Shown: in pieces, positions 15,289 through 59,032 of the stretch
Layout: the number at the start of each line of letters is the position of its first letter
Numbering within the stretch: the stretch's first letter is position 1
Source: an uncultured Clostridia bacterium
GTDB taxonomy: Bacteria; Bacillota; Clostridia; Christensenellales; Borkfalkiaceae
NCBI GenBank assembly: GCA_905235815.1
Contig: CAJOMT010000003.1
Coordinates: forward strand, 190-64,189
DNA length: 64,000 bases
Direction: 5' to 3'
Position numbers and translations under genes: made by a program
The notes under the pieces: model-generated
Told to the model about the DNA's origin: nothing
Seen by the model: the letters and a program-made list of their open reading frames with translations, nothing else
The model's database searches: none

Positions 15289-15347
15289 AGGTTGTGTATA
15301 TATAATATACACAGAACCTTAACTTTATTGAGATGGGAGTTGGGAAT

Positions 15348-34151: not shown

Positions 34152-34196
34152 AGAATAAAAGATAAATTATAACTCAAAAGCAACAAACGATAATTT

Positions 34197-36601: not shown

Positions 36602-36617
36602 TCGCACGGACAAAATA

Positions 36618-38839: not shown

Positions 38840-39062
38840 AAAAGAAAAGAAAAAAAACGTTTATATCGACGACGGGCATACCGTATACGATATGAGCGGT
38901 TTAGATAAAAGCAAGTCTAAATCGGACGACGGCGTTCAAATGACTAAAAAAGAAAAGAGAGCGGCGGTAAGGGCGGCTTTCGAAAGGTTTTTACCCATAT
39001 TTATAGGTGTATTACTGTGCTTTACGGCGACAATGCTGTTGATACGACTTTGGCTGAGCTAA
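38826..39062 (+). CDS. Tail-anchored small membrane protein (78 aa), unknown
   Basis: Lys-rich N-terminus, C-terminal TM FLPIFIGVLLCFTATMLLIRLWL; overlaps the ATPase gene by 14 nt. Confidence 0.6.
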   Translation: MAKNKKEKKKNVYIDDGHTVYDMSGLDKSKSKSDDGVQMTKKEKRAAVRAAFERFLPIFIGVLLCFTATMLLIRLWLS

Positions 39063-39091
39063 CGACTAATCTTTATGTTCAAGGAAGAAAT

Positions 39092-45000: not shown

Positions 45001-46465
45001 TTACTGTTCGGAACTTAAAGACGTAACGCTTAATAACGTAGACGTAATAGGTAATTATTGTTTTGCAGGTTGCTATGCGCTTAAAAATATAGATTTAAGC
45101 AAAGTTAAAGAAATAGGCGAAGGTGCGTTTTACGTTTCCTCTCAGCAAGACGAGATGTCGTTGACTTCAATCGATATTTCCGGCGCAGAGAAGATAGGCG
45201 ACGGCGCATTCTTCGGCAGACACGAACTCACGGGCGATATAGTTGCCGACAACCTTACCGAAATAGGAATTGCGGCATTCCGCGAAACTTCGCTGAACTC
45301 TTTCGAGGCGAAAAACCTTGAAATACTCGGCGATATGGCATTCTACGGAAACGAATCGCTCGCCGAATTCAAAGTTTCGGATAAAATAAAGAAAATCGGC
45401 GCAAGGGCTTTCGTCGATTGTAAGGATTTGACAACGTTTAAGACCTTCGACGGAGAAACGAACGTAGATATCAACGAATACGCCAAACTTATCGACGGCG
45501 TGCTGTACGTCGTGTTGGAGTCGGGACATTTACAACTTTCGGCTGTTCCGTCAAATTATAAGGTCGACGACAAAGTCGTTACCGAACTCATCGTTGCGGA
45601 CGATACTTATAGAATTGAAGAATATGCCGGCAATGCGAACGAGAACATAACGAAGATAATTTTACCCGATTCGCTTAAACTTATCGGCAATTACGCTTTC
45701 TACGGTTACGAAAATCTGGAAGCGGTAGAGTTCAAGTCGTTTACCGCACCGGCGCTCGAAGATTATTATAATTCGACCACCGTACTCAGCGAAGACGCAC
45801 CGGGCAGAAATTTACTTCATAACCAATACGACTTGTTCGGATTTGAATTGTATTATTATACGTTTATAGATTTGGCTGGCGAAAGAGAGCCTATCAAAAT
45901 GATATTGCCGAAGAACGAAAACGTCGAAGGCTACGATTCTCTCGTATACGAAGTGTATTTCGGAAAAGTCGAAAATGCGGAGAGAAGCGATTACGTTGCG
46001 ATGGATAAGAATCTTATCAACTTCATTTCTTACGCCGAGCAATTACAGAAGATATCCGTAATATCTTACAGCGACGAAGCGCTCATAAACAAAGCGACGA
46101 TTGCCTATAACGCAACGAATCAAGTCGCGACCGATTACGGTTATTCGGCAGACGTTTGGAATTCGCTTGTCGAAACTTATCAGAAAGCGAAGCAAGATCT
46201 CTTTGAGTTAAAACTTGCGGGAGCGAGCGAAGAAGTAAGGACGTTGCAAGAGGATATTTACAATATGTCGAAAAAGTTCTCGATAGATAAACTCGACGAA
46301 CTTAAAGCGATAACTGCGAGGATAAACAATCTTGCGGCAAGCGACAAAGTTCTTTTGGATCTTACTAACTACAACGAATTCGTCGCATCGTATAACGAAT
46401 ATATCGAAAAGATAAATTCGGAGATATATCCGATAGTCGACCGTATGGATAAAATATTTGGGTGA
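39092..46465 (+). CDS. Giant lipoprotein: S8 subtilase with PA-domain insert (cell-envelope proteinase / C5a-peptidase class) + Fn3-like + Big_2 + long BspA-type LRR array + helical C-terminus (2457 aa)
   Basis: Start MKKFISLFLTLIMFFAVSC (lipobox) behind an AAGGAAG RBS. Catalytic D in VAILDSGFD (39764), H in EHGTHVAG (39980), S in SGTSMASP (40979). PA-like VKGKVALIKRGDNTFEEKA. CPFLAFYGDWTEPP Fn3-like. Confidence 0.9.
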   Translation: MKKFISLFLTLIMFFAVSCAQFAEDNSDIAAKTEIGQTIESENVSQNLRLIKSDIKFTQEEAVSRIKAEYLLENGGYKPEDTVRVMIVLDGNSLIDDYNAGNSGAESVSEYVASTAGKYGITRIKTAQNRLISSLTSSGLIEKADNTLFTITNAIIADVKYKNLAAINSFGGVSHTILSDTYNKPQATNGDASAINNAVDIYETGIYDSSSVEYTGKGTSVAILDSGFDCSHKVFARQPEGEIAYTQDDISELLGDMRAASFTSDLDVMDVYYSRKIPFTYDYADKDANVFPYDSEHGTHVAGIIGGYCEEDDFKGVAIDTQLVLMKVFPDLNEGADTDDILLALEDAVILGVDAINMSLGSSCGFSTEADEENVNEIYKSINDAGISLITAGSNNYTSGFGGAQGNTSFVTNPDSGTVGSPSTYDAALSVASISGTKSRYFVANGSEVVFYKESNNINSKENDFYAELYNYLLDNGMVDEVGEEITLDYVTVPGTGSQQSYGAIDVKGKVALIKRGDNTFEEKAQLARRYGAIACIIYNNIDGDIAMSMGKSEHIPTVSISKDKGMSLAASDTGTITISGSQQAGPFISDFSSWGPTPSLGIKPEITAHGGNIKSAVPGGGYDLLSGTSMASPNLCGMTLLIRQYVKDEYEIDNWVDVMNLTNQLMMSTATIAKNEDGNPYSPRKQGAGLAALANSVNTKAYISVDGIDRTKLELGDDKNRTGVYEMVFNVVNLSGDAVSYNLGVIGMTESVSKYDTKHVAETPYMLGGGFKAEYLGGEGALSGNDVTVNAKGSVKVKVTYTLTADDKNYIESLFPYGMYVEGFVTLKANYDKGVDLNCPFLAFYGDWTEPPLFDKTYYEVESEAHDASIDYEDKIKADYYATTPYGSYYYNYLIPLGTYLYDLDTTQYDYIPASEEHIAVSNILGTIDGFAAVYAGLLRNAKEMKFSITDKVTGEVLWEYVDYNATKAYSYGGTPIPYYDYLRLRSTSIGEQGLINNRTYEFKMSGLLDYGDGGVAANKRNTFSFDFYFDDEAPVIKEVNYEKVYDKTLKKDRYYMNMTVYDNHYVMAITPIIFSNASSYTYLTKNPIPVYGEKGSDTTVRIEITDYLEDIHKNVFATSGYEFPLFDSLGFSIEDYALNSNIYLCPLPGVQGDFKFTDDGEVKGKEIDLITVGIGEVVDLTKYLATSDITVDKDKDYLKYLEWTSSNENVAEVSEGLVKAKASGRIKITVSDVYSSSILGIDKKATVYLSVRETNTAREIVTTVDDAALESLRISHFDTLFAYSRAGQNSSIGSTGSTMFTSSMTSISMYPGEKIKLFTDLDPWYAEDKYELVYTSTNPDTAMVAEDGTVTALKKGTVRITVGVGSSSRITDTISITVNSPFIIQDRTLVAYKGLGGTVEIPDDEGILYIGSYSFCLYDTDYSIELSDDDYDANKIPAANTAITKVIIPEGVEEIQKYAFYNCSSLKEVVIPESLRFIREYAFYNDESLESVDIKNTEVIGANAFFGCVKLQSIGLGKVYAIGKAAFKGCSALSGVDLRALRNSGDEIFYDCTSLKDVIFDEEGNTQLSYSMFRNTAIEELTLYGRKSGLGTKLNFDLPERCFLDCKNLKTVNLPDCDITFGDLCFYGCESLEKVVFSANTHITDIEGSTFEGTALKTFEVAAGNNEYAVGRDNRLLLSGDGKTIIFAAIYADYGNLTISGRDYDVIGKSAFIGANIKNLTIVGPIVISDYAFAKCETIETLTFENAENITIGRNAFFYNRGLTTVNNLDALSEISDYAFSYTTALERVSIGEGVKVGEGSFYNSGIEYAEIGSGAELGVGAFENCSKLTVVRLGDNVKLEMGTFMYDSKLASINLEGVPEIPDQTFYRCSALTKLDMSSATKIGNYAFADCGAIKEVKLSANLKSIGEGAFAGISEYVYGGLFETIDLPEGLEYIGDGAFLGCKELKSVTIPSTVKTEPGKFNYVFYYCSELKDVTLNNVDVIGNYCFAGCYALKNIDLSKVKEIGEGAFYVSSQQDEMSLTSIDISGAEKIGDGAFFGRHELTGDIVADNLTEIGIAAFRETSLNSFEAKNLEILGDMAFYGNESLAEFKVSDKIKKIGARAFVDCKDLTTFKTFDGETNVDINEYAKLIDGVLYVVLESGHLQLSAVPSNYKVDDKVVTELIVADDTYRIEEYAGNANENITKIILPDSLKLIGNYAFYGYENLEAVEFKSFTAPALEDYYNSTTVLSEDAPGRNLLHNQYDLFGFELYYYTFIDLAGEREPIKMILPKNENVEGYDSLVYEVYFGKVENAERSDYVAMDKNLINFISYAEQLQKISVISYSDEALINKATIAYNATNQVATDYGYSADVWNSLVETYQKAKQDLFELKLAGASEEVRTLQEDIYNMSKKFSIDKLDELKAITARINNLAASDKVLLDLTNYNEFVASYNEYIEKINSEIYPIVDRMDKIFG
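43260..45800 (+). repeat. Array of about 30 BspA-type leucine-rich repeats inside the protease gene (protein-level repeats)
   Basis: Recurring units such as IPEGVEEIQKYAFYNCSSLKEVVIPESLRFIREYAFYNDESLESVDI, IGKAAFKGCSALSGVDL, IGNYAFADCGAIKEVKL. Confidence 0.8.
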
Positions 46466-47053: not shown

Positions 47054-49381
47054 ATGAAAAGATTTATATGTGCGATTTTAGTTTTAGCGATGTCGTTTTC
47101 ATTGTTTGCTTGTAACAATTCAGGAGACCAATCCGGTAGCGAAAGCGGCGCAGTATCGGGCAGAACGCTTTCTACGCCTGAAAACGTGAAAATATCCGAA
47201 AGCGGACTTATTACTTGGGACGCAGTAAAAAATGCGACGGGATATATAGTTACTATAAACGGTTCGGCGGTCGCAAGGCTTGCGGAAACCGAATATCAGG
47301 CTGACTCGGCGTTGGCGTTTACGTTCAAGGTTGCGGCTACTGCCGACGGATATACCGATTCGGCGGCGTCTCAGTTGCAGACGTTTACTCCAAAGGCGGT
47401 TGCCGATGAAGTAATAATCGGAATTGAAGGTCAGAGCGAAGTCAAGAGCGGAAAGAGCATACAACTTACCGCAAACGTGTTTGGCACGAGCAATAAAGAA
47501 GTTACATGGTCTGTAAAGTCGGGTGCTGAAAACGTAACTATAAGCGATAGCGGCAAGCTTACGGCGAGCAACGTGAATTCGGACAGCTACGCCGTAGTCG
47601 TAGCGACGAGTAAAGAAGATCCGACCGCTTACGCCGAAAAATTAGTATATATTACAGCAAAGCCGATATTAAATCAAGCAATGCTCGACGAACTCGGCGA
47701 ATCGGAAAAATCCGAATTTTTAGGAACTCTCGGCATATCGGTTTATAACATAACGGGGCATTCTTCGGTCGTTGAAAGTTATACGCTTGATGTTTATACC
47801 GCTATGAAAGAAAACGTCTGGTATGCGGAATATCAAGACAATGCAGGTAATTCTTCTGCGCTCTATTACAAAGAGCACGACGGGTTGGCTAGCGAAGTCG
47901 GATTGAGTTTTATGAACGAAGAAGAATACGTCCCGATGGAGGACGGCGGTAAATACGTTACGTGGGAAGATTCGGGATTGTATAACAATTTCAAGGGACT
48001 TAAAGTCGAAGATTTTACTTTCAACGAAGATACGTGGCTATACGAGTATACCGGCAGAGATGAAAAATTGCCGGAGAGAATGGTTGCGTCTGCGAACCCG
48101 TACGATTTCGGAAAAGTCGAGAATTTCTCGCTCTATATTTCACAGGGCGAATTGATGGGATTTTATGCGACGAGCGCTTACGATTATTCGCTTGTTGACG
48201 GGTATAGATCGGTGTATAATCTCGTTGCGGTAATGAACTACGGCGACGACACGATAATCGTTCCCGAAATAAATAAATATTCTTATAGCGAAGAATTTCA
48301 TGCGCCGCTTAAAGAGGCGATTGAAAATATGCGCACTCTCGAAAGTTATACGACCGATTATATGGATCTTTCCGCTTCTGTACTTATAAGCGGCTATATA
48401 ATGGAAGGTTATAAAGAAACGGTTACGGCTAACGAATGTCACTACATACCTTACGATTATACGTTTAATTCGTATGGCAGAGAGGTAAAGACGTATCACG
48501 AAGAAGGCGCTTATGGGTATAAAAAGATAAACGACAAACTGTACAATACTTACATGTTTGACGCAAAAGAGAACGGATACGTTGCCACGAGGGCTTACGA
48601 AACCGATTTCAATGAGATAAAACCGTCGTTTATGTACGCTCCCGAAATATTCAGAGAATCTTACGTTGACGAAGACGACGGAACTATAACTTATTACGTA
48701 GACGACGCTATGGCGCAAGTTGCATCTTTGTTCTATCACGGCGTCGGAAACGATATTCAGCTATACGGCTTATTTGCGACGAGAGGGTATACGTCCTCGA
48801 CATCGTCGTTTACTCCGTTCGTAGTAGTGAAAGACGGACATATAATAGAGGCATGTTTCTATTACAATATGGTGTATATGTACGGCGTTGTCGATATTAC
48901 GTATTCTGATTTTAATTCGGCTACAATACAAGATGAAGCAGAGTTTGCGGTCAGAAACGTTCCTTCAACCTGGGATGAGGTTACGATATTCGTTTCCGAA
49001 GAAAGTGTGAGTACGGACGACGACGAGGAAGTCAATGCGGCGGAGGAACTGAAAGTATTCTTCAATGACGAAGATATTCTCGATAAATTGCCGTATTTCG
49101 GAAATGCGTTGGGCGATACTTACGGATTCGGACTTACCACTTCAAGGATACAGTCCGGAACGAACAGAAACGTATTTGCGATAGTGTTCTACTTTGACGT
49201 TCCGTTAGACGACGATTATACGATAAATAAGTCTATGGCAAAGGTAGAAGATTACTTGGTAGAGTGCGGTTTTGAAAAGAACAGATACGGCGAATACGAA
49301 AACGAATACGGAATAATGGTAGCCGTCGTGGATAATGCGCTCGACCTACTCGTATACGCTTGGAAAGACGTTAATTATTAA
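47054..49381 (+). CDS. Lipoprotein with Fn3-like and Big_2-like domains plus a large unknown region (775 aa)
   Basis: Lipobox SLFAC, S/G/E stalk, LITWDAVKNATGYIVTING (Fn3-like), VTWSVKSGAENVTISDSGKLTA (Big_2-like). Confidence 0.8.
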   Translation: MKRFICAILVLAMSFSLFACNNSGDQSGSESGAVSGRTLSTPENVKISESGLITWDAVKNATGYIVTINGSAVARLAETEYQADSALAFTFKVAATADGYTDSAASQLQTFTPKAVADEVIIGIEGQSEVKSGKSIQLTANVFGTSNKEVTWSVKSGAENVTISDSGKLTASNVNSDSYAVVVATSKEDPTAYAEKLVYITAKPILNQAMLDELGESEKSEFLGTLGISVYNITGHSSVVESYTLDVYTAMKENVWYAEYQDNAGNSSALYYKEHDGLASEVGLSFMNEEEYVPMEDGGKYVTWEDSGLYNNFKGLKVEDFTFNEDTWLYEYTGRDEKLPERMVASANPYDFGKVENFSLYISQGELMGFYATSAYDYSLVDGYRSVYNLVAVMNYGDDTIIVPEINKYSYSEEFHAPLKEAIENMRTLESYTTDYMDLSASVLISGYIMEGYKETVTANECHYIPYDYTFNSYGREVKTYHEEGAYGYKKINDKLYNTYMFDAKENGYVATRAYETDFNEIKPSFMYAPEIFRESYVDEDDGTITYYVDDAMAQVASLFYHGVGNDIQLYGLFATRGYTSSTSSFTPFVVVKDGHIIEACFYYNMVYMYGVVDITYSDFNSATIQDEAEFAVRNVPSTWDEVTIFVSEESVSTDDDEEVNAAEELKVFFNDEDILDKLPYFGNALGDTYGFGLTTSRIQSGTNRNVFAIVFYFDVPLDDDYTINKSMAKVEDYLVECGFEKNRYGEYENEYGIMVAVVDNALDLLVYAWKDVNY

Positions 49382-49447
49382 GTTAAAAACGAAAAATAGG
49401 TAGTTTATTTTTCGAAAAAATTTAAAATTTTTATGGAGGTAACAAAA

Positions 49448-51991
49448 ATGGCAAAATCAAGAAGAGTATTAAACGTACTCGTCTCATTGATGTTGGTATT
49501 GTGCTTGTCGCTGTTTGCCGCTTGCGGTAACGGAGCAGACAACGGCAGTGAAAGCAGTACCGAAAGTAGCTCAGAAAGCGGTAGTGATACGCCTGTTGTA
49601 CATCCTGTTGGAATAAACGCCACAGTAGAAGGCAACAAGTATTCATTAAAACTCGGCGATACGGCTACGATAAAAGTAGAGGTAACCAATACCGAAAATA
49701 TAGGTTACACGCTTAAATCGTCCAACGAATCTATTTTAAGAGTATCGGCGAACGGTTTGGTAGAAGTTGTAGCAGATCCGGACTATACTACGTATATAGT
49801 AGTAACTGCGACTGCGAATGCGGACAAGACTAAAACGGCGAACGTAGAATTTAAAGTAAATTCGTCTAAAGTAACGCCGGGACAGATCAACGGCGCTAAC
49901 GGAAGTAAGCTTACTTCCGAAATGATAGCGGCGCTCGGCAATGAAAGTATTACCGTAAGCGGAACTGTCGAGGATATATACGACATTTATTCGACTGATG
50001 GTATCGAAAGCAGTCAGGTTTACGAATACGAAGTAAAGATGGAGCCTGATAAGTGGTACGGCTATTGGAAAGCTGCCGAAGAAGACGGCGAGCCTGTTGA
50101 AGGCGCTGAACCGATGATGAACTTCTATCAAAGAGGCGACACGATGGTAGTAACTCAGGTAGAAGACGAATACGGCACGGCGAGCAAAGCTGAAGGCTAT
50201 CCTCTCCAAGAGTTATACATAAATATGAAGAATGAAGTCGTTGCGGAAAACGTAACCGACTATCTCAGCCGCGCTGCGCTTTGGTCTAATCAACACCTTT
50301 GGAATCACCTTTCCGAACTCGTAGCGAACGAAAATTGGACTGAAAAAGCCGAGTATATCGAGGAAGACGACGTATATGTTTATACTGCGGACTTAAATTC
50401 GAGCGAATGGTATTTAATGGCTTATTTAGCAGTTTCGTTCACACCGATATTAGGTGGTGCAGATGCGTTTTCTTCTTTGGAATTCTACGTTGAAGACGGC
50501 GAAATTACGCGAATAATCGCTTACAGTGAAGTAAACAACTATTATGGCGAAGATGATGAAGTTTTAGCGGGCGAATATACCGTTACCACTCTTAATTTCT
50601 CAAACGTTGGAACTACTAAAGTTCCGGCTCCTGCGGCTTACACCGTACCCGAAGACGAGGCTGAAGAATATGCGGCGTTAACTTCCGCACTTGGCAAGAT
50701 GAAGAATGCAAACAGTTATTATTTCAAGACCAGTGACAGAACGACTTACGCAATGCAGGGCGATCCCGATGATTATTCGATAGTCAACGATTCTGTAAAC
50801 AGAGAAATTTACGCTTTGGCTAAAACTTCTCCGGACGTATATCAATATGCTGCTTCTTCGAGCGGCACTGTCGGATTGGAAGGCTATGTAACCAATGACG
50901 GTATATATCTTATAAAGACCGGCGAATATACTTACACGATGGACGGCAATAATTATTTCAAAGAAGTTTCCGGTTACAGACAGTTCACCGTAGAAGGCGG
51001 AGACGACTATTTCGAATATTTCGAACCTCACTATGATAGCGATAAAGGAAGATATTATTTCGAGGGCAAGACTCGTACTTACGGTACTCTTAAAGATAAA
51101 ATCATACCCGGCTTTGACTTTGCGCCTGAAATATTCGAATACAGAGGCACTACGAAAGTAAACGGAGCGAATATGTATCAATTTGCATTGAGAGCTGCAA
51201 ACGTAACGTCTGAAGTTGCTCAGCAGATAAGTATGTATTCTTATGCTAAAGACGCTACGGCTTTGGCTAATTCGATTCTTACGATAACCGTAACCAAGAA
51301 CGGCGAACTCTATTCGACGTCTTATCCTTATAGTATTTACGATATATACAGAGGAATTTGCACGACCACTTATTCGAATATAAACGATACCGAAATTGAT
51401 CCCGACGTATTCAGCGACGAAAACTATATTTCCAAAAATTATAGTTTTGACTGGGCTGATTATAAGGTAAAATACTACGATTATTATCATGAATATGAAG
51501 ATGCGAACGGCAATAAGACTCATAACTGGCTCCGTAATGACAATTATACCGGTGCTCAGCTTATAGCCGAAATTGCCAGTGACAGACACAACAATTTCGA
51601 CAAGGATATGCCGGATCTCGAATTCGCTTATAATGCGTTCGGCAACTTCTACGGTCCGTTCTTCGATTATGATTATGATCTTACTACGGATGCAAACGGT
51701 ATAAGTTATTATGAGAAGTCGTTCACGCTTACCGCATCTACCGATAAGTGCGACTCCAACAGTCAGATAACCACTAAGACTTTCTTAGAGATAGTAGACG
51801 GAATTACAACTGATTTGGCGAAATTCGGCTTTGTTTTGGATGAAAACAATTCCCGTCTTGACGGCGGTACGACCGGTAGACAGACAAACTATGCAACGTT
51901 CGTACATGGCGACGTTATGATAGTTGTCGAAAACAACTTCACCAAGAATTTCTGGATCAATTTCTACGTCAACGGCGACTGGTCTCTTTAA
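49448..51991 (+). CDS. Lipoprotein, distant paralog of the preceding gene (847 aa)
   Basis: ATG at 49448 behind GGAGG. Lipobox LFAAC, S/E-rich stalk, Ig-like N-domain. Shares IIPGFDFAPEIF with IKPSFMYAPEIF of the 47054 gene. Confidence 0.8.
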   Translation: MAKSRRVLNVLVSLMLVLCLSLFAACGNGADNGSESSTESSSESGSDTPVVHPVGINATVEGNKYSLKLGDTATIKVEVTNTENIGYTLKSSNESILRVSANGLVEVVADPDYTTYIVVTATANADKTKTANVEFKVNSSKVTPGQINGANGSKLTSEMIAALGNESITVSGTVEDIYDIYSTDGIESSQVYEYEVKMEPDKWYGYWKAAEEDGEPVEGAEPMMNFYQRGDTMVVTQVEDEYGTASKAEGYPLQELYINMKNEVVAENVTDYLSRAALWSNQHLWNHLSELVANENWTEKAEYIEEDDVYVYTADLNSSEWYLMAYLAVSFTPILGGADAFSSLEFYVEDGEITRIIAYSEVNNYYGEDDEVLAGEYTVTTLNFSNVGTTKVPAPAAYTVPEDEAEEYAALTSALGKMKNANSYYFKTSDRTTYAMQGDPDDYSIVNDSVNREIYALAKTSPDVYQYAASSSGTVGLEGYVTNDGIYLIKTGEYTYTMDGNNYFKEVSGYRQFTVEGGDDYFEYFEPHYDSDKGRYYFEGKTRTYGTLKDKIIPGFDFAPEIFEYRGTTKVNGANMYQFALRAANVTSEVAQQISMYSYAKDATALANSILTITVTKNGELYSTSYPYSIYDIYRGICTTTYSNINDTEIDPDVFSDENYISKNYSFDWADYKVKYYDYYHEYEDANGNKTHNWLRNDNYTGAQLIAEIASDRHNNFDKDMPDLEFAYNAFGNFYGPFFDYDYDLTTDANGISYYEKSFTLTASTDKCDSNSQITTKTFLEIVDGITTDLAKFGFVLDENNSRLDGGTTGRQTNYATFVHGDVMIVVENNFTKNFWINFYVNGDWSL

Positions 51992-52045: not shown

Positions 52046-53632
52046 ATGAAAAAAAAGATATTGGCGATTTTATTTTCGATCGCAATGATATCCGTTTTGG
52101 TGTTTGCTGCGTCTTGTGCGAGCGGAGAAAAAACTCCTAAAGGCAATTCTTCAAGTGCCGGCACGGAAGTAACGTCTGATACTCAATCGGGTTCGGAAAA
52201 TAACGACGAAACGGATAGCGGTTCGGAAACAGAAACAGATCCGGTAGATGACAGACCGGATTATACGGGCAACGACATTGTCGGCGAATACAGAGTATTT
52301 ATGAACAATATGACCGGCGTACATACTAATCCGTACACTTTGAAAATCAACAGTAAATTGGAAGTAAGCGGAACTACTTTCGGTGAAACCGAAGTTACGG
52401 GTTTCAGAGGCGGTGCAGGCGTAGTCTGGATAGACGGCAAATATACGTACTATAACGGCAACGGTTTAATCGTTTCGGTAGTAAACAAAAACTATGCGTC
52501 TTTGTCGGCAACCGACTGCGTATATATCGGAGTTAAAAACGGTGATTCGATAAGCGAGTATACAAACTTTAACTCGCATAGAACCAAACTCGTCAAATGG
52601 ACTATGGCAGACAGGTCTACGCTTACGGTTTTCGTATACGGCAACTCGGTTTACACAAACGTTACGTTTGAATCCGATCCGTCGGTCAAGAGCATTTCTT
52701 CCATTTGGAATGTCGATGAAGATAACGGCAGATTTACATATAAAGTAAATACTCTTACCGTTTATGACAGTAACGGCAAAAAAATTGAGACTTTTGCGAA
52801 TAATGGTTCCGATCTTAAAGTATCTGACGGCTATAACGGCACTTATGCGTTTTTGAGTAACGGAATGTTAAATACCGAAGGTAAAACCGATATTTACTTA
52901 AACGGCGTAGGCGGCATAACCGTAAACGACAAGGAGTATTCCTATACGATAGATAAGGACAGACTCACCTTTAACGGTCAAACCGTTATATTGGATAAAG
53001 AGAATATGACTTATCACTACGTTTCTGACGGATTCGGCGGCACGTATAAAAACGGCGACGATACTCTTACGTTGGACGGATACGGCACGGCTATTTTGCC
53101 TGACGGTAATATGGCTACTTACGAAATAGTGTCCGGTATGGCGAAAATAATATCGGGCGGTGTAACTTATCGTTATAATCTTGACGTAGACGCTTTAACG
53201 TATTCAGAGTACGATCCGTCTAAGCTTCCGGCGTTTGCGGGTTGGAGTTTTACGGGACATGCTATTCCTTCTTCATTCATTTACGATTCGGATAGTGAAG
53301 ACGATGAGGAGTACTATGGCGACGAATCCGTAGTGACGAGTATAACCTTTTCGACCGAAGATCAGACTTTAACCATAGTTAGCACGCATTGGAGCGGATA
53401 TAAATATATAGATATAACCGCAAGTTATACTTATGACGTTGATAATAAGACGATAGAGTTTACTCATCAAGGCAAAACGGTCAAGATGAAATTTTCTTCT
53501 ACGCTTGCGTCATTGGTGGCTTATGATGCCGATTATGCGAGCGTATACGGAACCGGTTCCAGCCCGACTACTTATTGTTTCTATCATATAGATTCGGGAA
53601 AAACCATATATTACGTATTTTCAAAGCAATAA
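52046..53632 (+). CDS. Lipoprotein carrying one copy of the novel GTY/LDGxG module (528 aa)
   Basis: ATG at 52046 behind AGGAG. Lipobox FAASC; S/T/E/D stalk. Motifs SDGYNGTYAF...IYLNGVGGITV and SDGFGGTYKNGDDTLTLDGYGTAIL. Confidence 0.8.
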   Translation: MKKKILAILFSIAMISVLVFAASCASGEKTPKGNSSSAGTEVTSDTQSGSENNDETDSGSETETDPVDDRPDYTGNDIVGEYRVFMNNMTGVHTNPYTLKINSKLEVSGTTFGETEVTGFRGGAGVVWIDGKYTYYNGNGLIVSVVNKNYASLSATDCVYIGVKNGDSISEYTNFNSHRTKLVKWTMADRSTLTVFVYGNSVYTNVTFESDPSVKSISSIWNVDEDNGRFTYKVNTLTVYDSNGKKIETFANNGSDLKVSDGYNGTYAFLSNGMLNTEGKTDIYLNGVGGITVNDKEYSYTIDKDRLTFNGQTVILDKENMTYHYVSDGFGGTYKNGDDTLTLDGYGTAILPDGNMATYEIVSGMAKIISGGVTYRYNLDVDALTYSEYDPSKLPAFAGWSFTGHAIPSSFIYDSDSEDDEEYYGDESVVTSITFSTEDQTLTIVSTHWSGYKYIDITASYTYDVDNKTIEFTHQGKTVKMKFSSTLASLVAYDADYASVYGTGSSPTTYCFYHIDSGKTIYYVFSKQ

Positions 53633-53645
53633 AACTTGTTTTCTA

Positions 53646-53677
53646 AATATTCCGCTTTTCGCCGAAAGCGGAATATT
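53646..53677 (+). other. Intercistronic stem-loop
   Basis: AATATTCCGCTTT-TCGCCG-AAAGCGGAATATT, 13 bp perfect. Confidence 0.6.
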
Positions 53678-53719
53678 CGGATAAATATTTAAAAATTAAT
53701 ATTTTATGGAGGTAAAACA

Positions 53720-56700
53720 ATGAAACTTAAAAAGAGTGCAATTGTAATGTTAATTGCAATTTTCTCTCTTGCAACGGTTTTAATGGCGAGCTGCGGCACG
53801 GTAGAACAGATCATGCCGCCGGATCATTCGATAACAATCGAAGCGCCCGATCCGATCGCCCACAATAAAACTGTTGCGCTCGTACCCGCAATTGACGGTT
53901 TAGAAGACGTTGAATTCAATTTTTCGTCTGATAACGAAGACGTTGCGACGGTAGATGAAGACGGCGTTGTGAAGGGTTTAGCAGTCGGAACTGCAAACAT
54001 TACTATCACCGCTACCGTTTTGGGAGTAAGAACAGAGGAACTTTCCGCTACGGTAAAGGTTACCGTTACACATTCATACGGCGAATATGAATACGTAACC
54101 GTGCCTGATTTCGAACATGACGGCGTTGCAAGCAGAGTGTGCGAATATGACGGCGATATCGAATATGCCACCGTACCTGATTTAAACGATGAGTCGTGGA
54201 CTGTATCTGCGGAAAAGTCTATTGCTCCCACGTATTTAGATAATGGTACCGACGTGTACGTACACGATGAATTCCCCGATGTGGAAATTTCGACCGATAC
54301 AGTGGCAATGCCGGCATACGTTGGTCAACATTACACCATTACTACGCTTTATGAAAGCGGCAATATGGATCTTTACAGAATGAATGATTTTATCGTTTCC
54401 GAAATGGCAGCGAATTTCGACTGCACGGCGGAAATGATTGCCGACGACTCGCGTGTGGTTGATTGCTTCGGCAGCGGCGCTGCGTTTCACGATCATTCGG
54501 CTGAAGATGGTTCGTTTACGATATCTTATGTCGGAAAAGATTATACGGCGTATATCGATGCGGCTACCGGAATAATCGTTGAAGTCGAGAGCAAAAATCA
54601 TTATGTAAACATTGCATTTCCGACTACGCGTGATAATGGCGCTTCTACCGATTATCTCAGTTCAAAGAGGAGAGAGGGTGATTATGCCTTTGGCGTATTT
54701 AACGGCGGAAAGGACTATTTTGTCGAATTTAAATTTGACAACGATGGTGTGATAAGTATTTACGCCAACGAAGAATTAGTCGTATTCGGCGCAGAACTTA
54801 AAGCTGACGGAGAAGATATCCATGTTGCCGATTTGGCGGATAATAACTTTGTCGACGTACTGTTCGACGGTAAATATTTGGCTAATTACGGCAGAAAAGA
54901 TGGCAATTTAATTTCTCTCGATGGCTTAGAAGGCGAATATGCGTCGCATCTTGAAGTTATAGACGAACAATACGATGCATATACCGTTGCATTGGACGGT
55001 ATCGGCGGTATTTGTATCTTTGACGACGGCGAATTAAAATATAAAGGTACGTATGAGTTGACAGAAAATGCCGACTATATTGCCGACGTATATCTTGCAA
55101 ACGGCACAACTTATTTACGTCTCGTATCATTTGATAACGGAACGGTAAATTTAGTATATCCTTATGCAAGCTTGATATTAGAGTTGAACGGCGGAGAAGT
55201 TGTAGGTTCATCGACATTTAATGTAAATATAAACGTGCCGGCTGAAATAGAAACTCCGACTAAAGAGGGGTATGAATTCGTAGGCTGGTATGCGGATGAA
55301 AACTTTGAAACGCTTATCGGAAACAAGATAACTGTAGAAGAAGCTGGCGCAAATGTACATGTTTATGCTAAATATTTACCCAAAGTTACTCTTACAGTAT
55401 ATTTTGCGGTAGATGAAGGTAATGAAGAACCAAGAGTTTACGAGCATGGTCAAATTGCAGTTATTGAAACATATGATTTATACAACGAACTCGTAAGAGT
55501 TACCGGCTATAAAGAAAATTACTATGATTCTGAGCTTTACTACGCTTTTGATGCTTTCGCTTATGGCGACTCTGACAAAATAGCAGAGGGTGATTTTGCG
55601 GTCACTTCGGATATGGAAGCAATAACCGTCGCATGGACGTTTGCTCCTCCTTATGTGGGCTCTTTTTACGGTACTGAAGTGTGGTCTGCGTCGAGTGGCA
55701 ACAGTGGCAAATCTACGTTAACTATTGCAAAGTCTGGTTCTATAAGCGGACTTGTTACCGGGTATGTCTATAGATACGATGCCGCATCTCAAAAGATTTA
55801 TTGGACAAAAAACAAAGATGACGAAACTCCGAAAGGGTATTTCTTCTTTGATGCTGATTCCGGTATAATAGCAGGCGTATATTCTTCTATGGATAAAGAT
55901 ATCGGCTATGACGCTTACGTGCTTAGCAGAAATAACACCGATACGAACTATAAGTTTGCAGCAGCATACGGCGTATATGGTCCTGCTGTCGGTGATATGT
56001 CGGCAAATTATCTTGCTCACTTCTTTACGGTGCCGACGCCGGACGGCGGTACTGAAGAAGTCCTCGTATATGTAAATCACATTTATAGCGGTATAACTAT
56101 CAAAGATACCGCCGGCAACGAGTATAATACTTCGACAATCAAGAACGCAAAGACGCTTTTGGTTTACGATAAAGACGGAAATATCGTGTACACGGCAGCT
56201 ACGTCTGCAAATACGTTTAATGCGGGTAACGGCTCGAGTTATTACCTCATTTTAGACCTTTATTTCGGTACGTACACAAGTGATGGCGGCAAAGATATTA
56301 TTCTCGACGGCGTTGGTGGAATTTCTTACGACGGCAAGAACGGTACTTATGCTCTTTCCGACGGCGAGGATGATACTTTCGACGTATATTTGAATAACAG
56401 AACCGAATATTATCAGTTAACTATCGGCGACAATCATACTTATACCGCTATGGAAAAGGTTATGGTAAATCTTGCGTTTGATACGAACGCCGCCGTTACG
56501 AATGTTAACGTTGAAGCGGTTAGTGCAAATAAAAACATATCCATTGATCTACCATCGGTTGAAGATACTTCCGATTATGTATTCCGCGGCTGGTATGCGG
56601 ATGCAGAATTTGAAACCAAGTTAGAAAACGCTTATGTTCCGACTGAAAATGCGACTATTTACGGTAAATTCTTAGAAAGAGTAGATATAACCGTAAATTA

Positions 56701-59032
56701 CAACGGCGGCGCAGATGTTAGTGGCAATATAACCGTTTATGGCAAAGGCGAAACTACCGTGATAGGTAATCCGAAACTTGCAGGTCAAAAGTTTGCCGGT
56801 TGGTTCACTTCTGAAACCTTTGATGAAGGCACAGAATGGGTTAGCGGCGAAGCAATTTATGCTGACGTTGAAATCTTCGCTAAGTGGGTAGAGGCTCCGG
56901 CTTACTATCATACTTACGGCAACGTTCAGGTTTACGAAACTACCGGACTCGGTGGGGTTTCGTCAAAATACAGTTACAGTAGTGACGGCGCAATACTTGA
57001 TGTCAGTGCCGAAGGTACGGCTACCGCTACGGCATATCCGTTCAGGGGAGATGTAACCGTTTATTATACTGACGAAGACGCAGGACAACTTATTATAAAG
57101 GTTGGCTCATCGTCATACTATAAAGGGTATATTGACAAACCTACCGGTTTGATCGTAATGGCTTACAGTTCAAGTACTTCCGAAAGCGATGCTTTAGCGG
57201 CTCAGATTGGTCAAGTAACGTTACTTTCTCCATTTGAAACCGGAAGTTTAACGTCGCATATCTCGTCCTCATATTGGAATGGCGGAAATACGAGAGCTAT
57301 CGAGTATACTTATAATGATCATGTTTACGGTATATTAGTTCATGAAGGCGCAGTCTACTTCAACGTGGCGTTTGTTGATGAAAACGGTGATGCAATACCG
57401 GCGATAGATTGCTATGATGGTGATAAAGCCCCGTATATCAACGTTGTCGACGCAGGCGGAGAGAGTATTGTAGAACTCTATCATCTCCGCTTCGAGGTTA
57501 CGATAAACTATGGCGATAATAGTGGTTTAGAATCTAAGACATTCAACGCTCAAGACGGTGAGGTTTTGCAGGAAAGTGTTTACAAACCGTCAGGTTTAAA
57601 CACAGAAGGCAAAGCGTTTGCATATTGGTATCTCGACGACAGTAGTGTCGAATATGATTTTTCAACTCCTATTACTGGCGCATTAACAATTAATGCTGCG
57701 TGGAAAGACGCTGCCGCTCAATTCGGTGATTGGAAAGGTTGGAACTTCTATGGTTCAAATGCGGGTACAGCTTCACTTAGTGATAGCTATGCGTTCTCTG
57801 TGAACGCAGACGGCGTTATTTATCAAGGTATCGGAAGTAAGTTTAAAGATTATCATATTATAAATACCGAACTTCTCGACGGACCGGTAAATATTGCGAG
57901 CGGCTCTACTACGTACTATATGTATTACAATCAAGAAGCCGGTGTATTGTGGTCGCAATATAGTGGTAATTCTACGGGTGTTGGAACCGATACTGCGTTG
58001 TTCTTCTTACAATCCAATTTTAAATCTGCAACGTATGCAGGTAAGATTTGGAACAGTCATTACTTTGGTTTTGTAAATATCGTTTACAAAGATGACAGTA
58101 GTAAGACGATAATGTGTTATAACGATCGTATTTACGTTGTTACGTTCTTGACTGATGCTCGTGACAAGGAACTTACACTTTATAACGCTGACGGCACGAA
58201 GGTTTTCGCAGTCAAGAATGGTAGTACGATATTGTTTAACGACGGCCTTGGAGGTACATATACAAGCGGCGACGATCAACTTGTTGTAGACGGTTTTGGC
58301 ATAATGACTTTAAACGACGATGATTTTAATTACAATAAGTGTGGCGATAACGTTATCTCTTATGTTGTCGAAGGAATATATCACGAAATAGTTCTTAACG
58401 GCGATACTTTTGAGGACGAAGTTGCAAATTGTACGGTAAGTTTTAATCTCGGCGATGTCGAGGGTTCTGTGGATCCGATAATTGCGAATAAGACTTCCTC
58501 AATAGTTTTGCCGGGCGCGGACGGCGGAGATTTGATTTTCTCCGGTTGGTATGAAGACGAAGATTTGACGATTTTTGCAGGCGCTGATGGGGCTTCTTAT
58601 ACGGTAAACTCTGATATAGTCTTATATGCTAAGTGGTCCACGGAAGCATACGCTATTGCTACGAGCAGTCGGTATCCTTGGACTTATAATGAAGAAAATG
58701 CAGAATGGACTTGCGGTAATCACAATGTTCATTCTTCTGAGTCAACCATAACCATTACTGCCTATACGGCTATTACCATTACGTTCGATTATGCTTGTGA
58801 TTCCGAGAATGCAGAGAAATGGGATTATTTCTCAATTACATTAAACAATTCAGAGCTATTGAAAGCCGGTGGTAAGGTCGGTGCATTGAATTATAAAGAT
58901 TATTCGGTGACATTGGCTGCTGGGGACAAATTAGTTCTTAAATACCAGAAAGATAGTTCTACCAATAGTGATTTGGATATTGCTAAGATTAAAAACTTTA
59001 AAATCAACGGACAATTGATTGTCGAGATTTAA
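53720..59032 (+). CDS. Giant lipoprotein (1770 aa): Big_2 domain, four copies of the novel module alternating with five Listeria-Bacteroides-type repeats, C-terminal jelly-roll-like domain
   Basis: Lipobox LMASC. Big_2-like VATVDEDGVVKGLAVGTANITITA. LB-type repeats end in EGYEFVGWYAD...VYAKY, YVFRGWYAD...IYGKF, QKFAGWFTS...IFAKW, KAFAYWYLD...INAAW, LIFSGWYED...LYAKW. Confidence 0.85.
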   Translation: MKLKKSAIVMLIAIFSLATVLMASCGTVEQIMPPDHSITIEAPDPIAHNKTVALVPAIDGLEDVEFNFSSDNEDVATVDEDGVVKGLAVGTANITITATVLGVRTEELSATVKVTVTHSYGEYEYVTVPDFEHDGVASRVCEYDGDIEYATVPDLNDESWTVSAEKSIAPTYLDNGTDVYVHDEFPDVEISTDTVAMPAYVGQHYTITTLYESGNMDLYRMNDFIVSEMAANFDCTAEMIADDSRVVDCFGSGAAFHDHSAEDGSFTISYVGKDYTAYIDAATGIIVEVESKNHYVNIAFPTTRDNGASTDYLSSKRREGDYAFGVFNGGKDYFVEFKFDNDGVISIYANEELVVFGAELKADGEDIHVADLADNNFVDVLFDGKYLANYGRKDGNLISLDGLEGEYASHLEVIDEQYDAYTVALDGIGGICIFDDGELKYKGTYELTENADYIADVYLANGTTYLRLVSFDNGTVNLVYPYASLILELNGGEVVGSSTFNVNINVPAEIETPTKEGYEFVGWYADENFETLIGNKITVEEAGANVHVYAKYLPKVTLTVYFAVDEGNEEPRVYEHGQIAVIETYDLYNELVRVTGYKENYYDSELYYAFDAFAYGDSDKIAEGDFAVTSDMEAITVAWTFAPPYVGSFYGTEVWSASSGNSGKSTLTIAKSGSISGLVTGYVYRYDAASQKIYWTKNKDDETPKGYFFFDADSGIIAGVYSSMDKDIGYDAYVLSRNNTDTNYKFAAAYGVYGPAVGDMSANYLAHFFTVPTPDGGTEEVLVYVNHIYSGITIKDTAGNEYNTSTIKNAKTLLVYDKDGNIVYTAATSANTFNAGNGSSYYLILDLYFGTYTSDGGKDIILDGVGGISYDGKNGTYALSDGEDDTFDVYLNNRTEYYQLTIGDNHTYTAMEKVMVNLAFDTNAAVTNVNVEAVSANKNISIDLPSVEDTSDYVFRGWYADAEFETKLENAYVPTENATIYGKFLERVDITVNYNGGADVSGNITVYGKGETTVIGNPKLAGQKFAGWFTSETFDEGTEWVSGEAIYADVEIFAKWVEAPAYYHTYGNVQVYETTGLGGVSSKYSYSSDGAILDVSAEGTATATAYPFRGDVTVYYTDEDAGQLIIKVGSSSYYKGYIDKPTGLIVMAYSSSTSESDALAAQIGQVTLLSPFETGSLTSHISSSYWNGGNTRAIEYTYNDHVYGILVHEGAVYFNVAFVDENGDAIPAIDCYDGDKAPYINVVDAGGESIVELYHLRFEVTINYGDNSGLESKTFNAQDGEVLQESVYKPSGLNTEGKAFAYWYLDDSSVEYDFSTPITGALTINAAWKDAAAQFGDWKGWNFYGSNAGTASLSDSYAFSVNADGVIYQGIGSKFKDYHIINTELLDGPVNIASGSTTYYMYYNQEAGVLWSQYSGNSTGVGTDTALFFLQSNFKSATYAGKIWNSHYFGFVNIVYKDDSSKTIMCYNDRIYVVTFLTDARDKELTLYNADGTKVFAVKNGSTILFNDGLGGTYTSGDDQLVVDGFGIMTLNDDDFNYNKCGDNVISYVVEGIYHEIVLNGDTFEDEVANCTVSFNLGDVEGSVDPIIANKTSSIVLPGADGGDLIFSGWYEDEDLTIFAGADGASYTVNSDIVLYAKWSTEAYAIATSSRYPWTYNEENAEWTCGNHNVHSSESTITITAYTAITITFDYACDSENAEKWDYFSITLNNSELLKAGGKVGALNYKDYSVTLAAGDKLVLKYQKDSSTNSDLDIAKIKNFKINGQLIVEI

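Follow-up and report, generated by a model that had tools for sequence, protein, structure and literature searches.

Repeat structure of the two lipoproteins

Two neighbouring genes of an uncultured Clostridia bacterium, located within the window (the whole stretch of 64,000 nucleotides that was analyzed), raise the question of whether their lipoprotein products are built from a domain family of their own and what this family may do on the cell surface. The original prediction had described a module of about 300 amino acids (aa) that occurs once in a 528-aa and four times in a 1770-aa protein. Both open reading frames were confirmed on the + strand (52046-53632 and 53720-59032), and each of the 17 quoted motif strings was present exactly once, at positions consistent with that description. 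A jackhmmer family search and independent profiles agreed on four copies of the module in the large and one in the small protein. The following features were identified:

52046..53632, + strand: 528-aa lipoprotein gene (open reading frame), in the order lipobox (Cys24), A, B, B and an orphan C-terminal tail
52277..52804, + strand: A domain in the 528-aa protein (aa 78-253; independent A profile 42 bits, E 6e-15)
52817..53209, + strand: two B domains in tandem in the 528-aa protein (aa 258-326 and 327-388; independent B profile 30.5 and 33.0 bits)
53210..53629, + strand: orphan C-terminal tail in the 528-aa protein (aa 389-528; only the ortholog P0002 found by jackhmmer)
53720..59032, + strand: 1770-aa lipoprotein gene (open reading frame), in the order lipobox (Cys25), Big_2, C, A-B-F-(F?), A-B-F-F, A-F, A-B-F and J (F, Flg_new)
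54068..54304, + strand: N-terminal Cys/His-containing "C" repeat, one degenerate copy (aa 117-195; C-repeat profile E 1.6e-15)
54308..55162, + strand: module copy 1, A (aa 197-393) and B (aa 397-481) (independent profiles, A 45 and B 35 bits)
55178..55378, + strand: Flg_new repeat 1 (aa 487-553; Pfam PF09479 and local Flg profile)
55643..56458, + strand: module copy 2, A (aa 642-828) and B (aa 844-913) (independent profiles, A 119 and B 65 bits)
56459..56890, + strand: Flg_new repeats 2 and 3 (aa 914-985 and 988-1057; Pfam and local Flg profile)
56894..57472, + strand: module copy 3, A alone (aa 1059-1251; independent A profile 116 bits, B profile without match)
57494..57706, + strand: Flg_new repeat 4 (aa 1259-1329; Pfam and local Flg profile)
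57710..58423, + strand: module copy 4, A (aa 1331-1501) and B (aa 1505-1568) (independent profiles, A 75 and B 33.5 bits)
58430..58636, + strand: Flg_new repeat 5 (aa 1571-1639; Pfam and local Flg profile)
58637..59029, + strand: domain J, predicted CBM-like beta-jelly-roll (aa 1640-1770; AlphaFold2 pLDDT 92.9, Foldseek against PDB)

Pairwise self-comparison gave only marginal results, since the A copies are 16-34% identical to each other (blastp E 5e-7 to >0.1) and phmmer comparisons between module copies were mostly non-significant. Profile searches were therefore used instead. Profiles of A and B were made from distant homologs, with the window sequences and their close orthologs excluded. 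In the 1770-aa protein, the four A copies scored 45, 119, 116 and 75 bits and the three B copies 35, 65 and 34 bits; in the 528-aa protein, the scores were 42 bits (A) and 31 and 33 bits (B). In the controls (1000 shuffled and reversed sequences), the A profile did not exceed 9.9 bits and the B profile 10.6 bits. An A1 profile in which copy 3 was not included detected this copy at E 5e-24. One might suspect from the weak phmmer scores that a beta-protein sequence rich in Thr, Gly, Tyr and Asp merely mimics a repeat, through its composition or by chance. This is refuted, as each copy reached 30-119 bits with profiles free of window sequences, compared to the control values given above, and as the copies align in register, share their motifs and belong to a module common to 321 protein clusters. 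Thus, the internal repeats are significant at the profile level. From the module alignment, segments composed of a jelly-roll and B (P0006_817 and three others), which had entered by jackhmmer drift, were removed by hand.

While the repeat itself held true, its size and unity did not. The module measures approximately 255-285 aa, and besides linkers it contains two domains that can be separated, A (about 185 aa, motifs Y.D..TGIIV and VY.NVTF) and B (about 70 aa, motif DG..GTY...LDG.G...GTY). Likewise, the count of four copies plus one applies to A but not to B, which is present three times in the 1770-aa protein and twice in the 528-aa protein. In module copy 3, B is missing and Flg_new follows directly after A. 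A and B are independent evolutionary units; B is also encountered after a jelly-roll or another B and A also without B. A derivation of B from the N-terminal part of A by duplication was rejected on the basis of hhalign (probability ≤4%), as was a trefoil- or propeller-like internal symmetry in A (probabilities ≤4%).

In the small protein, YYNGNGLIVSVVNK and VYTNVTFESD both lie inside domain A, and the tandem B pair is marked by the motifs SDGYNGTY...LNGVGG and SDGFGGTY...LDGYG. Its only relative found is P0002 (62% identity). The C-terminal tail gave zero matches against PDB sequences, and a relationship with the C-terminal tails of P0006-P0012 was unsupported on comparison. The 1770-aa protein has an ortholog (P0003) of identical architecture and 60% identity. 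As predicted, its modules alternate with Listeria-Bacteroides (Flg_new) repeats, five according to Pfam, whose borders deviate by no more than about 10 nt from those proposed. Flg_new was recognized by Pfam at E 7e-33 (113 bits, cut-off 27) in five stretches and by TIGR02543 with 46.5 bits (cut-off 20.95); a Big_2 domain was also detected by Pfam. The segment aa 554-641 (55379-55642) scored 2.4 bits with the Flg profile and may be a degenerate second Flg_new. Within this protein, copies of A share on average 25% identity, those of B 36% and those of Flg_new 29%, values that rule out a periscope-type protein with near-identical tandem repeats.

Domain order in the A-B family

An exhaustive HMMER search with the A-B family recovered 321 clusters when the limit was E<=1e-3 and 174 when it was E<=1e-30; each protein has two to six stretches. 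Nearly all of the 321 clusters represent lipoproteins of 1300-4400 aa. They follow a common grammar, in which a Cys-repeat in variable number (n) precedes three to five A-B-Flg_new-Flg_new units and a terminal J. Among 156 non-redundant proteins, 512 A, 532 B, 875 Flg_new and 104 J copies were counted and a lipobox was found in 116. B comes next after 460 of the 512 A copies and Flg_new after 434 of the 532 B copies, and the complete order A-B-Flg_new-Flg_new was seen 328 times. In 37 cases, J occupies the place of A before B(-Flg-Flg). A is the last domain in 35 proteins and B in 59, all of them devoid of J. Judged from these sequences, the repeating super-unit of the family is A-B-Flg_new-Flg_new with a length of about 400 aa. 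Copies at orthologous positions are 45-71% identical, compared to 16-34% between paralogous A copies. The module copies are thus ancient, each of them being maintained individually. A scan of genome contigs with the 1770-aa protein returned a single Clostridiales MAG (L002), in which Flg_new is present and the module absent.

Search for a known family or fold

The original prediction could not place the module in any family, and this was borne out by all searches performed. With whole proteins, Pfam-A (2025) and NCBIfam 20 left the modules without assignment. When 21 module copies and 37 B copies were submitted to Pfam singly, the best E-values ranged from 0.001 to 0.008, all below the curated cut-offs. 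Profiles of A-B revealed nothing significant among PDB sequences (best E of the B profile 0.03). The A-B pair of copy 2 was modelled by AlphaFold2 as an all-beta structure (pLDDT 82, pTM 0.75). Using the whole two-domain model, Foldseek found no PDB structure at E<=1e-3 (best E 4.7e-3, TM 0.15), and the best match in BFVD had an E-value of 0.12. With both domains searched as one model, a known fold may have escaped notice. A and B are also not divergent forms of Flg_new, since hhalign of the deep alignments against the Flg_new alignment gave a probability of 0.1% and no Pfam Flg_new match falls on A or B modules. The profiles of both domains contain no catalytic-looking conserved residues; conservation mainly concerns G, Y, D, T and V. 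A tblastn search against plasmids and phages and an Rfam scan across the window were without match. Searches of the literature on the Flg_new/Listeria-Bacteroides repeat and related surface proteins yielded no account of the A-B module or of the cassette treated below. A and B, which are probably extracellular all-beta domains, could therefore not be assigned to any family in Pfam-A 2025, NCBIfam 20, PDB or BFVD.

The terminal domain J

A jelly-roll-like C-terminus had likewise been foreseen, and the AlphaFold2 model of J (pLDDT 93) agrees with it. Foldseek retrieved 20 PDB matches at E<=1e-3 (2.7e-5 to 1e-3, TM 0.35-0.63). The best one was 6bqm, the C-terminal domain of VesC (E 2.7e-5, TM 0.63); others were CBM35 (2w3j, 4qb2, 2w47), CBM61 (2xom), CBM70 (4d0q), MAM/CUB domains and the gingipain K1 adhesin 4itc. 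According to the model, J has a CBM-like beta-jelly-roll (galactose-binding-domain-like) fold, which it shares with CBM35, CBM61, CBM70 and the VesC domain. By sequence, however, J had no match in Pfam or PDB and is outside every CBM family of CAZy, and the A-B module bears no resemblance to these domains. Because the lipid anchor is at the N-terminus, J would form the membrane-distal tip.

The gene cassette

Three further genes precede the two module genes on the same strand:

39017..46465, + strand: cassette gene 1, giant S8 subtilase, predicted lipoprotein (Pfam: PA insert, fn3_5, Big_2 and BspA-type LRR_5)
47054..51991, + strand: cassette genes 2 and 3, paralogous lipoproteins of 775 and 852 aa (mutual E 1e-14)

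For the subtilase, Pfam E-values were 3e-37 (S8), 6.5e-16 (PA) and 5.7e-7 (fn3_5). The triad D250/H322/S655 is intact (VAILD250SG, H322GTHVAG, GTS655MASP), and the protein is predicted to be an S8 protease of the cell-envelope proteinase type with a catalytically intact triad. The same subtilase was found upstream of the module gene at three other loci (L003, L006 and L007). At L003, cassette genes 2 and 3 also have orthologs, with 38% (E 1e-121) and 31% (E 3e-87) identity; neither of the two proteins had a match in Pfam or PDB. Lipoboxes were called by the expression [LVI][ASTVI][GAS]C within the first 45-50 residues and are predicted for all five cassette proteins: MASC at Cys25 (1770 aa), AASC at Cys24 (528 aa), AVSC after Met26 (subtilase), FAAC (p3) and LFAC (p4, by eye). 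The genes form a conserved cassette of five lipoproteins, which opens with the intact S8 subtilase, continues with the two paralogous proteins and closes with a variable lipoprotein followed by the module protein. The cassette is still kept where the identity of the module protein is 27%. The four lipoprotein genes are separated by 51-87 nt. Between the subtilase and these genes there is a gap of 588 nt with promoter-like matches, so that co-transcription with the protease is not established. Directly upstream of the cassette lies an Opp ABC transporter operon, a linkage observed in this window. When metagenomes were scanned with the subtilase, the outcome was a single weak LRR match (L009).

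Possible function of the A-B module

Since an all-beta module without family match resides in a conserved cassette with a giant surface protease, a multi-headed binding array appears to be the most likely explanation. We estimate at roughly 55% the probability that A-B is a new extracellular head-plus-neck domain pair which forms a multivalent binding array. The product would be a giant cell-surface lipoprotein of an endospore-forming, Clostridia-like Firmicute, in which three to five A-B-Flg-Flg super-repeats extend from a lipid anchor at the N-terminus and are often capped by the CBM-like jelly-roll. A, with about 185 aa, would be the head and B, with about 70 aa, the neck, while B-Flg-Flg may act as a spacer or stalk segment. 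In the literature, Flg_new is regarded as a domain that builds the stalks of fibrillar adhesin-like proteins (bioRxiv 10.1101/2021.12.07.471604). A ligand-binding role of A is suggested because the CBM-like J takes exactly the position of A (J-B-F-F), even though such positional equivalence is a circumstantial sign. If A is a binding head, several different heads would be displayed along one tether, as the paralogous copies are about 25% identical, yet each is conserved to 45-71% in the ortholog. It is conceivable, and this is the most speculative step, that macromolecules (glycoprotein, protein or polysaccharide) are caught by the array, or brought into position, as substrates of the subtilase encoded with it. 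The peptides released could then, in this window, enter the cell via the Opp transporter encoded immediately upstream.

The same architecture could also be explained by a purely structural role, in which A-B is a stalk or spacer that lengthens the tether and binding is restricted to the terminal J or to partner proteins. The regular alternation of A-B with a known stalk domain, the structural type of the conserved residues (Gly, Tyr, hydrophobics) and the family proteins ending in A or B without J are consistent with this explanation. On the other hand, the stalk repeats of periscope proteins and fibrillar adhesins tend to be small (70-100 aa) and are often highly alike, while A has about 185 aa and its copies are only 16-34% identical but conserved position by position in orthologs. 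Moreover, J fills the slot of A at 37 J-B junctions, and in the many family members lacking J, A would be the sole candidate head. A mere spacer function of A-B is therefore possible, though rather unlikely.

Two further explanations would place the domains in known superfamilies or among enzymes. B, and perhaps also the N-terminal part of A, might be a divergent lipocalin-like (calycin) barrel for small hydrophobic ligands and thus a remote member of a known superfamily. A G-x-W motif at the first strand is a feature of lipocalins, which the G-x-Y in the first strand of B resembles. Bacterial lipocalin-like domains (Lipocalin_4 PF13648, GH43_C PF16369, DUF5640 PF18692) are similar to B in that they form a short beta-strand meander with G-x-aromatic in the first strand and are found in lipoproteins. 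A few sub-threshold HMM matches were indeed obtained, to the "lipocalin-like" GH43_C in four of 21 module copies (best E 0.008) and to Lipocalin_4, AOC_like and DUF5640 in four of 37 B copies (E 0.001-0.007). However, these matches lie far below the gathering thresholds and concern a minority of the copies, B with its 70 aa or so amounts to half a lipocalin barrel, its profile did not exceed E 0.03 against PDB sequences, and no structure of a lipocalin or calycin reached E<=1e-3 when the confident two-domain model was compared with PDB by Foldseek. A lipocalin relationship is thus quite improbable. It is in our view very unlikely that A is a cryptic enzyme, e.g. a glycoside hydrolase, lyase or peptidase, of which a surface scaffold carries several copies. 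Catalytic domains are sometimes located on large Flg_new surface proteins (cluster 9, bioRxiv 10.1101/2021.12.07.471604), and two of 21 copies gave a weak Glyco_hydro_46 match (E 0.004). By contrast, the alignment of 439 copies reveals no conserved acidic pair, Ser/His or metal-binding motif, its best-conserved residues being G, Y, D, V and T. Pfam, PDB and Foldseek lend no support, and three to five divergent tandem copies per protein are unusual for catalytic domains.

The proposed binding array has counterparts in known systems. Like fibrillar adhesin-like Flg_new (PF09479) proteins, the module protein is very long, secreted, Thr/Gly-rich and all-beta, with Flg_new stalk repeats, a terminal membrane anchor and, at the opposite end, a putative binding domain (J). 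Of the features by which Monzon et al. describe these proteins, length, Flg_new stalk and an anchor, here a lipobox, are present and a known adhesive domain is absent. What separates the module protein from them is the N-terminal lipobox in place of a C-terminal LPXTG anchor, a stalk made of a four-domain A-B-Flg-Flg super-repeat and not of a homogeneous array, and candidate heads (A) along the whole length and not only at the tip, with A and B outside known adhesive or stalk families. The subtilase combines S8, a PA insert and Fn3_5, the typical set of cell-envelope proteinases such as PrtP/lactocepin, which acts with Opp in lactic acid bacteria, and streptococcal C5a peptidase-type subtilases. 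In this window it also follows an Opp operon, gene order being what suggests a functional link. Contrary to PrtP/PrtM, it has a size of about 2500 aa, BspA-type LRRs and a lipobox and is followed by four large lipoproteins without counterpart there; a PrtM-like maturase was not seen. A far-reaching interpretation is that A and B are new folds or at least superfamilies of ligand-binding domains and that the cassette is an unrecognised surface machine by which uncultured Clostridia capture and degrade macromolecules (protein/glycoprotein foraging), a monoderm analogue of Sus-like/PUL systems or of PrtP-Opp. We consider this combination unlikely.

If the domain assignments are true, A, B, the Cys/His repeat C and the CBM-like J, all of them absent from Pfam-A 2025, NCBIfam and PDB, account for about 85% of two large surface proteins and also explain more than 300 related clusters, corresponding to hundreds of thousands of unannotated metagenomic residues. 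They would also reveal a regular A-B-Flg-Flg super-repeat grammar, and the alignments of A (439 copies) and B (426 copies) are ready seeds for new domain entries. The biological principle itself is not new, since repetitive beta-domain surface proteins are well known. The association of the module proteins with a conserved cassette that includes an intact giant subtilase would provide a testable hypothesis on the attachment of uncultured spore-forming anaerobes to macromolecules or their foraging on them. As indirect clues to the taxonomy, Spo0A is present in L003, and SigF/G-like sigma genes adjoin the locus.

Detection of the repeats

Two genes of the window encode the proteins analyzed here:

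52046-53632, + strand, ORF of 528 aa (small protein)
53720-59032, + strand, ORF of 1770 aa (large protein)

Both products start with a predicted signal peptide and a lipobox (Cys24 in the small, Cys25 in the large protein). Pfam-A detected Big_2 (aa 64-99) and five Flg_new repeats (Listeria-Bacteroides type; E 7e-33) in the large protein and nothing else; the small protein received no assignment, and NCBIfam contributed only the TIGR02543 repeat.

The original prediction proposed a novel module present four times in the large and once in the small protein. The motif strings quoted for it each occur exactly once, where implied, and the coordinates proposed for the Flg_new repeats and the C-terminal domain differ from ours by no more than about 10 nt. 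Compared in pairs, the copies resemble each other only weakly: blastp E values range from 5e-7 to above 0.1, most phmmer scores are non-significant, and copies of the larger part, domain A, share 16-34% identity. Therefore, homologs were collected for profile tests. For the small protein the only relative was P0002 (62% identity); for the large protein an ortholog of equal length (P0003, 60%) and nine further relatives of 2000-2400 aa (27-31%) were found, in which Pfam sees only Flg_new. A jackhmmer search seeded with aa 640-915 of the large protein converged, yielding four copies in this protein and one full copy plus an additional C-terminal piece in the small one. A curated alignment of 21 copies (A1), to which copy 3 of the large protein did not contribute, recovered this copy with E 5e-24 over its first 175 positions only. 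Independent profiles were built from 429 A and 417 B copies (B being the smaller domain) of distant homologs, leaving out the window sequences and close orthologs. In the large protein, the A profile scored 45, 119, 116 and 75 bits and the B profile 35, 65 and 34 bits; the corresponding scores for the small protein were 42 bits (A) and 31 and 33 bits (B). With 1000 shuffled and reversed sequences, the maxima were 9.9 bits (A) and 10.6 bits (B), confirming that the predicted repeat lies far above chance; an origin as a chance artefact is refuted by scores of 31-119 bits.

Domain organization

The repeated unit comprises two separable domains. A has a length of about 185 aa (5th-95th percentile 167-212), and its consensus includes ...Y.GtY.G...ltiD..G...G...y.gy.D...Giiv..Ys...S.w...ifvyn..vY.nVtftd..G...l.Vkd..G, covering the first two signatures of the prediction. 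The third signature corresponds to B (about 70 aa, consensus V.lDGy.GTYT..G..tlvldG.G..T.gg..GTYt...eYYe.TLd....TyT.vKP). Together with an N-terminal Cys/His repeat (C) and a C-terminal jelly-roll (J), the domains are arranged as follows (F, Flg_new):

Large protein: lipobox, Big_2, C (117-195), A (197-393), B (397-481), F (487-553), 554-641 without domain assignment, A (642-828), B (844-913), F, F, A (1059-1251), F, A (1331-1501), B (1505-1568), F, J (1640-1770)
Small protein: lipobox, A (78-253), B (258-326), B (327-388), 140-aa tail

The small protein thus carries two B domains, and B is missing from copy 3 of the large protein. In profile-profile comparisons, A, B, C, J and Flg_new were mutually unrelated (every probability below 1%), and no internal symmetry was detectable in A. 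In the window, none of the domains A, B, C and J occurs outside the two genes. Two more Flg_new-containing proteins, encoded at 15333-18230 (965 aa) and 30366-31490 (374 aa), lack all four. The tail of the small protein (aa 389-528, window 53210-53629) is an orphan whose sole detectable relative is the tail of P0002.

Family size and domain succession

When A1 was run with HMMER exhaustively against 1.84 billion representatives, 321 clusters matched with E<=1e-3, of which 235 reached E<=1e-10 and 174 E<=1e-30; almost all of them are 1300-4400 aa long and contain two to six matched stretches. Among 156 non-redundant members, 116 with a lipobox, 512 A, 532 B, 875 Flg_new, 104 J and 439 C domains were counted. 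Of the 512 A domains, 460 were followed by B, and of the 532 B domains, 434 by Flg_new; the string A-B-F-F occurred 328 times. Thus, the true repeating unit is a super-repeat A-B-Flg-Flg of about 400 aa. B was directly preceded by J in 37 cases and by another B in 32, and J can stand in for A within the super-repeat. No source examined gave a protein name for any member, and no member was found in plasmid or phage records.

The C repeat (about 85 aa, consensus h.HtYG.W...PT.t..G.A.r.C..CG...vPaLtDtsVWT...ATht..G..vYTS.YGtVtV...H.y.) occurs one to ten times per protein, also at the N-termini of P0004-P0012 and most family members, and is absent from Pfam. Its His/Cys pattern hints at metal binding; the copy in the window (54068-54304) is degenerate, with one Cys.

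Relation to known families and folds

None of the 21 module copies and 37 B copies reached the Pfam cut-off. The sole recurrent signals were sub-threshold, to lipocalin-like families (E 0.001-0.008): GH43_C in 4 of the 21 module copies, and Lipocalin_4, AOC_like and DUF5640 in 4 of the 37 B copies. Neither the A1 nor the B-alone profile matched PDB sequences significantly. AlphaFold2 yielded a confident all-beta model of copy 2 with A1 (pLDDT 82, pTM 0.75, about 23 strands). With this whole two-domain A-B model as query, Foldseek returned no match at E<=1e-3 in either the PDB or BFVD; the best hits had E 4.7e-3 (PDB; TM 0.15, generic propellers) and 0.12 (BFVD), and the model has no detectable fold relative there. 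That the module could not be assigned to a known family, as stated in the prediction, therefore holds for Pfam-A, NCBIfam and PDB, and for these Foldseek searches.

J has no sequence relative in Pfam or PDB. Its model (pLDDT 93) matched best the C-terminal domain of VesC (E 2.7e-5, TM 0.63), as well as CBM35, CBM61, CBM70, MAM/CUB and the gingipain K1 adhesin domain, all beta-jelly-roll binding domains, which supports the predicted jelly-roll-like C-terminus. None of the principal domains (A, B, C and J) is contained in Pfam-A 2025, NCBIfam 20 or PDB; the kind of protein, a giant surface protein of repeated beta domains with Flg_new as stalk, is already familiar. Neither the A-B-Flg-Flg succession nor the five-lipoprotein subtilase cassette described below was found in the searchable literature.

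Gene neighbourhood

The window is chromosomal and opens with a ribosomal-protein/SecY/RpoA operon (first 14.5 kb). Upstream of the two genes lie:

31503-38839, + strand, complete Opp-type oligopeptide ABC transporter, directly upstream of the subtilase
39017-46465, + strand, S8 subtilase of 2482 aa with PA insert, fn3_5, Big_2 and BspA-type LRR_5
47054-49381 and 49433-51991, + strand, lipoproteins of 775 aa and 852 aa, paralogs of one another (E 1e-14)

The subtilase triad is intact by sequence (Asp250/His322/Ser655), and a lipobox of its own is predicted after Met26. For the two paralogs (p4 and p3), sequence searches of Pfam, NCBIfam and PDB gave no match. Gaps of 51-87 nt separate the four lipoprotein genes from one another, and a 588-nt gap with promoter-like matches lies between them and the subtilase gene. 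The transporter comprises an unusually long SBP_bac_5 protein (882 aa), two permeases and two ATPases; since the ATPase ORFs as listed overlap by 79 nt, the second probably starts further downstream.

Around distant family members this gene order is kept: subtilase, p4-like lipoprotein, p3-like lipoprotein, a third and variable lipoprotein (528-1591 aa, in some cases with a B domain), module protein. The subtilase is visible in loci L003 (P0005), L006 (P0004) and L007 (P0034); in L004/L005 (P0012) and L008 (P0031), three genes lacking a Pfam assignment were seen upstream, the protease lying beyond the retrieved flank. The comparison covering L004 identified its first two upstream genes as p4-like and p3-like orthologs; the L003 orthologs are 38% (p4, E 1e-121) and 31% (p3, E 3e-87) identical. 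This five-gene cassette (window 39017-59032; L003, L004, L006, L007, L008) is kept at a module-protein identity of only 27%.

Possible function

In the literature, Flg_new counts among the stalk domains of fibrillar adhesin-like proteins (10.1101/2021.12.07.471604). Because of this, because B nearly always follows one of the larger domains A and J and precedes Flg-Flg, and because the CBM-like J substitutes for A, the most economical reading is that B-Flg-Flg would be neck and spacer, A a binding head, and the whole protein a lipid-tethered chain with three to five different heads, often with a CBM-like tip. The heads are ancient and maintained copy by copy: paralogs are about 25% identical, compared to 45-71% at orthologous positions. 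Length-variable stalks, in contrast, consist of near-identical repeats, and the difference argues for distinct roles of the individual copies. A-B might instead act purely as a spacer, which is rather unlikely. A divergent lipocalin-like binder, to which the recurrent sub-threshold signals would point, is improbable, and a cryptic enzyme very much so. As to the binding-head array, its conserved partnership with an intact cell-envelope-type subtilase suggests, speculatively, that it may capture or position substrates for proteolysis by this enzyme; the adjacent Opp transporter adds to this idea, in the window only.

Spo0A beside L003 and SigF/G-like sigma genes beside the window genes and L001 would place the carriers among endospore-forming Firmicutes. 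The sigma gene of the window (59162-59470), downstream of the large-protein gene, is truncated: over residues 1-103 it is 88% identical to the 258-aa homolog of L001 (7003-7779), which is intact, and it ends with ...FSTYAVP, the rest being absent from the window. The block behind it has a lower GC content (0.34-0.36) and contains PglE/PglC/PglD-like genes and a glycosyltransferase gene (59923-63587). Possible explanations are an insertion or, as with skin, an element that interrupts a sporulation sigma gene. A 947-aa protein (27253-30096) revealed only a weak partial match to alpha-L-rhamnosidase (GH106; E 3.5e-9). All genuine-looking ORFs of at least 200 aa across positions 1-64000 are on the + strand, and in each 2-kb bin both GC skew (0.04-0.23) and AT skew (0.02-0.31) are above zero, which fits a Firmicute chromosome segment read along the leading strand.
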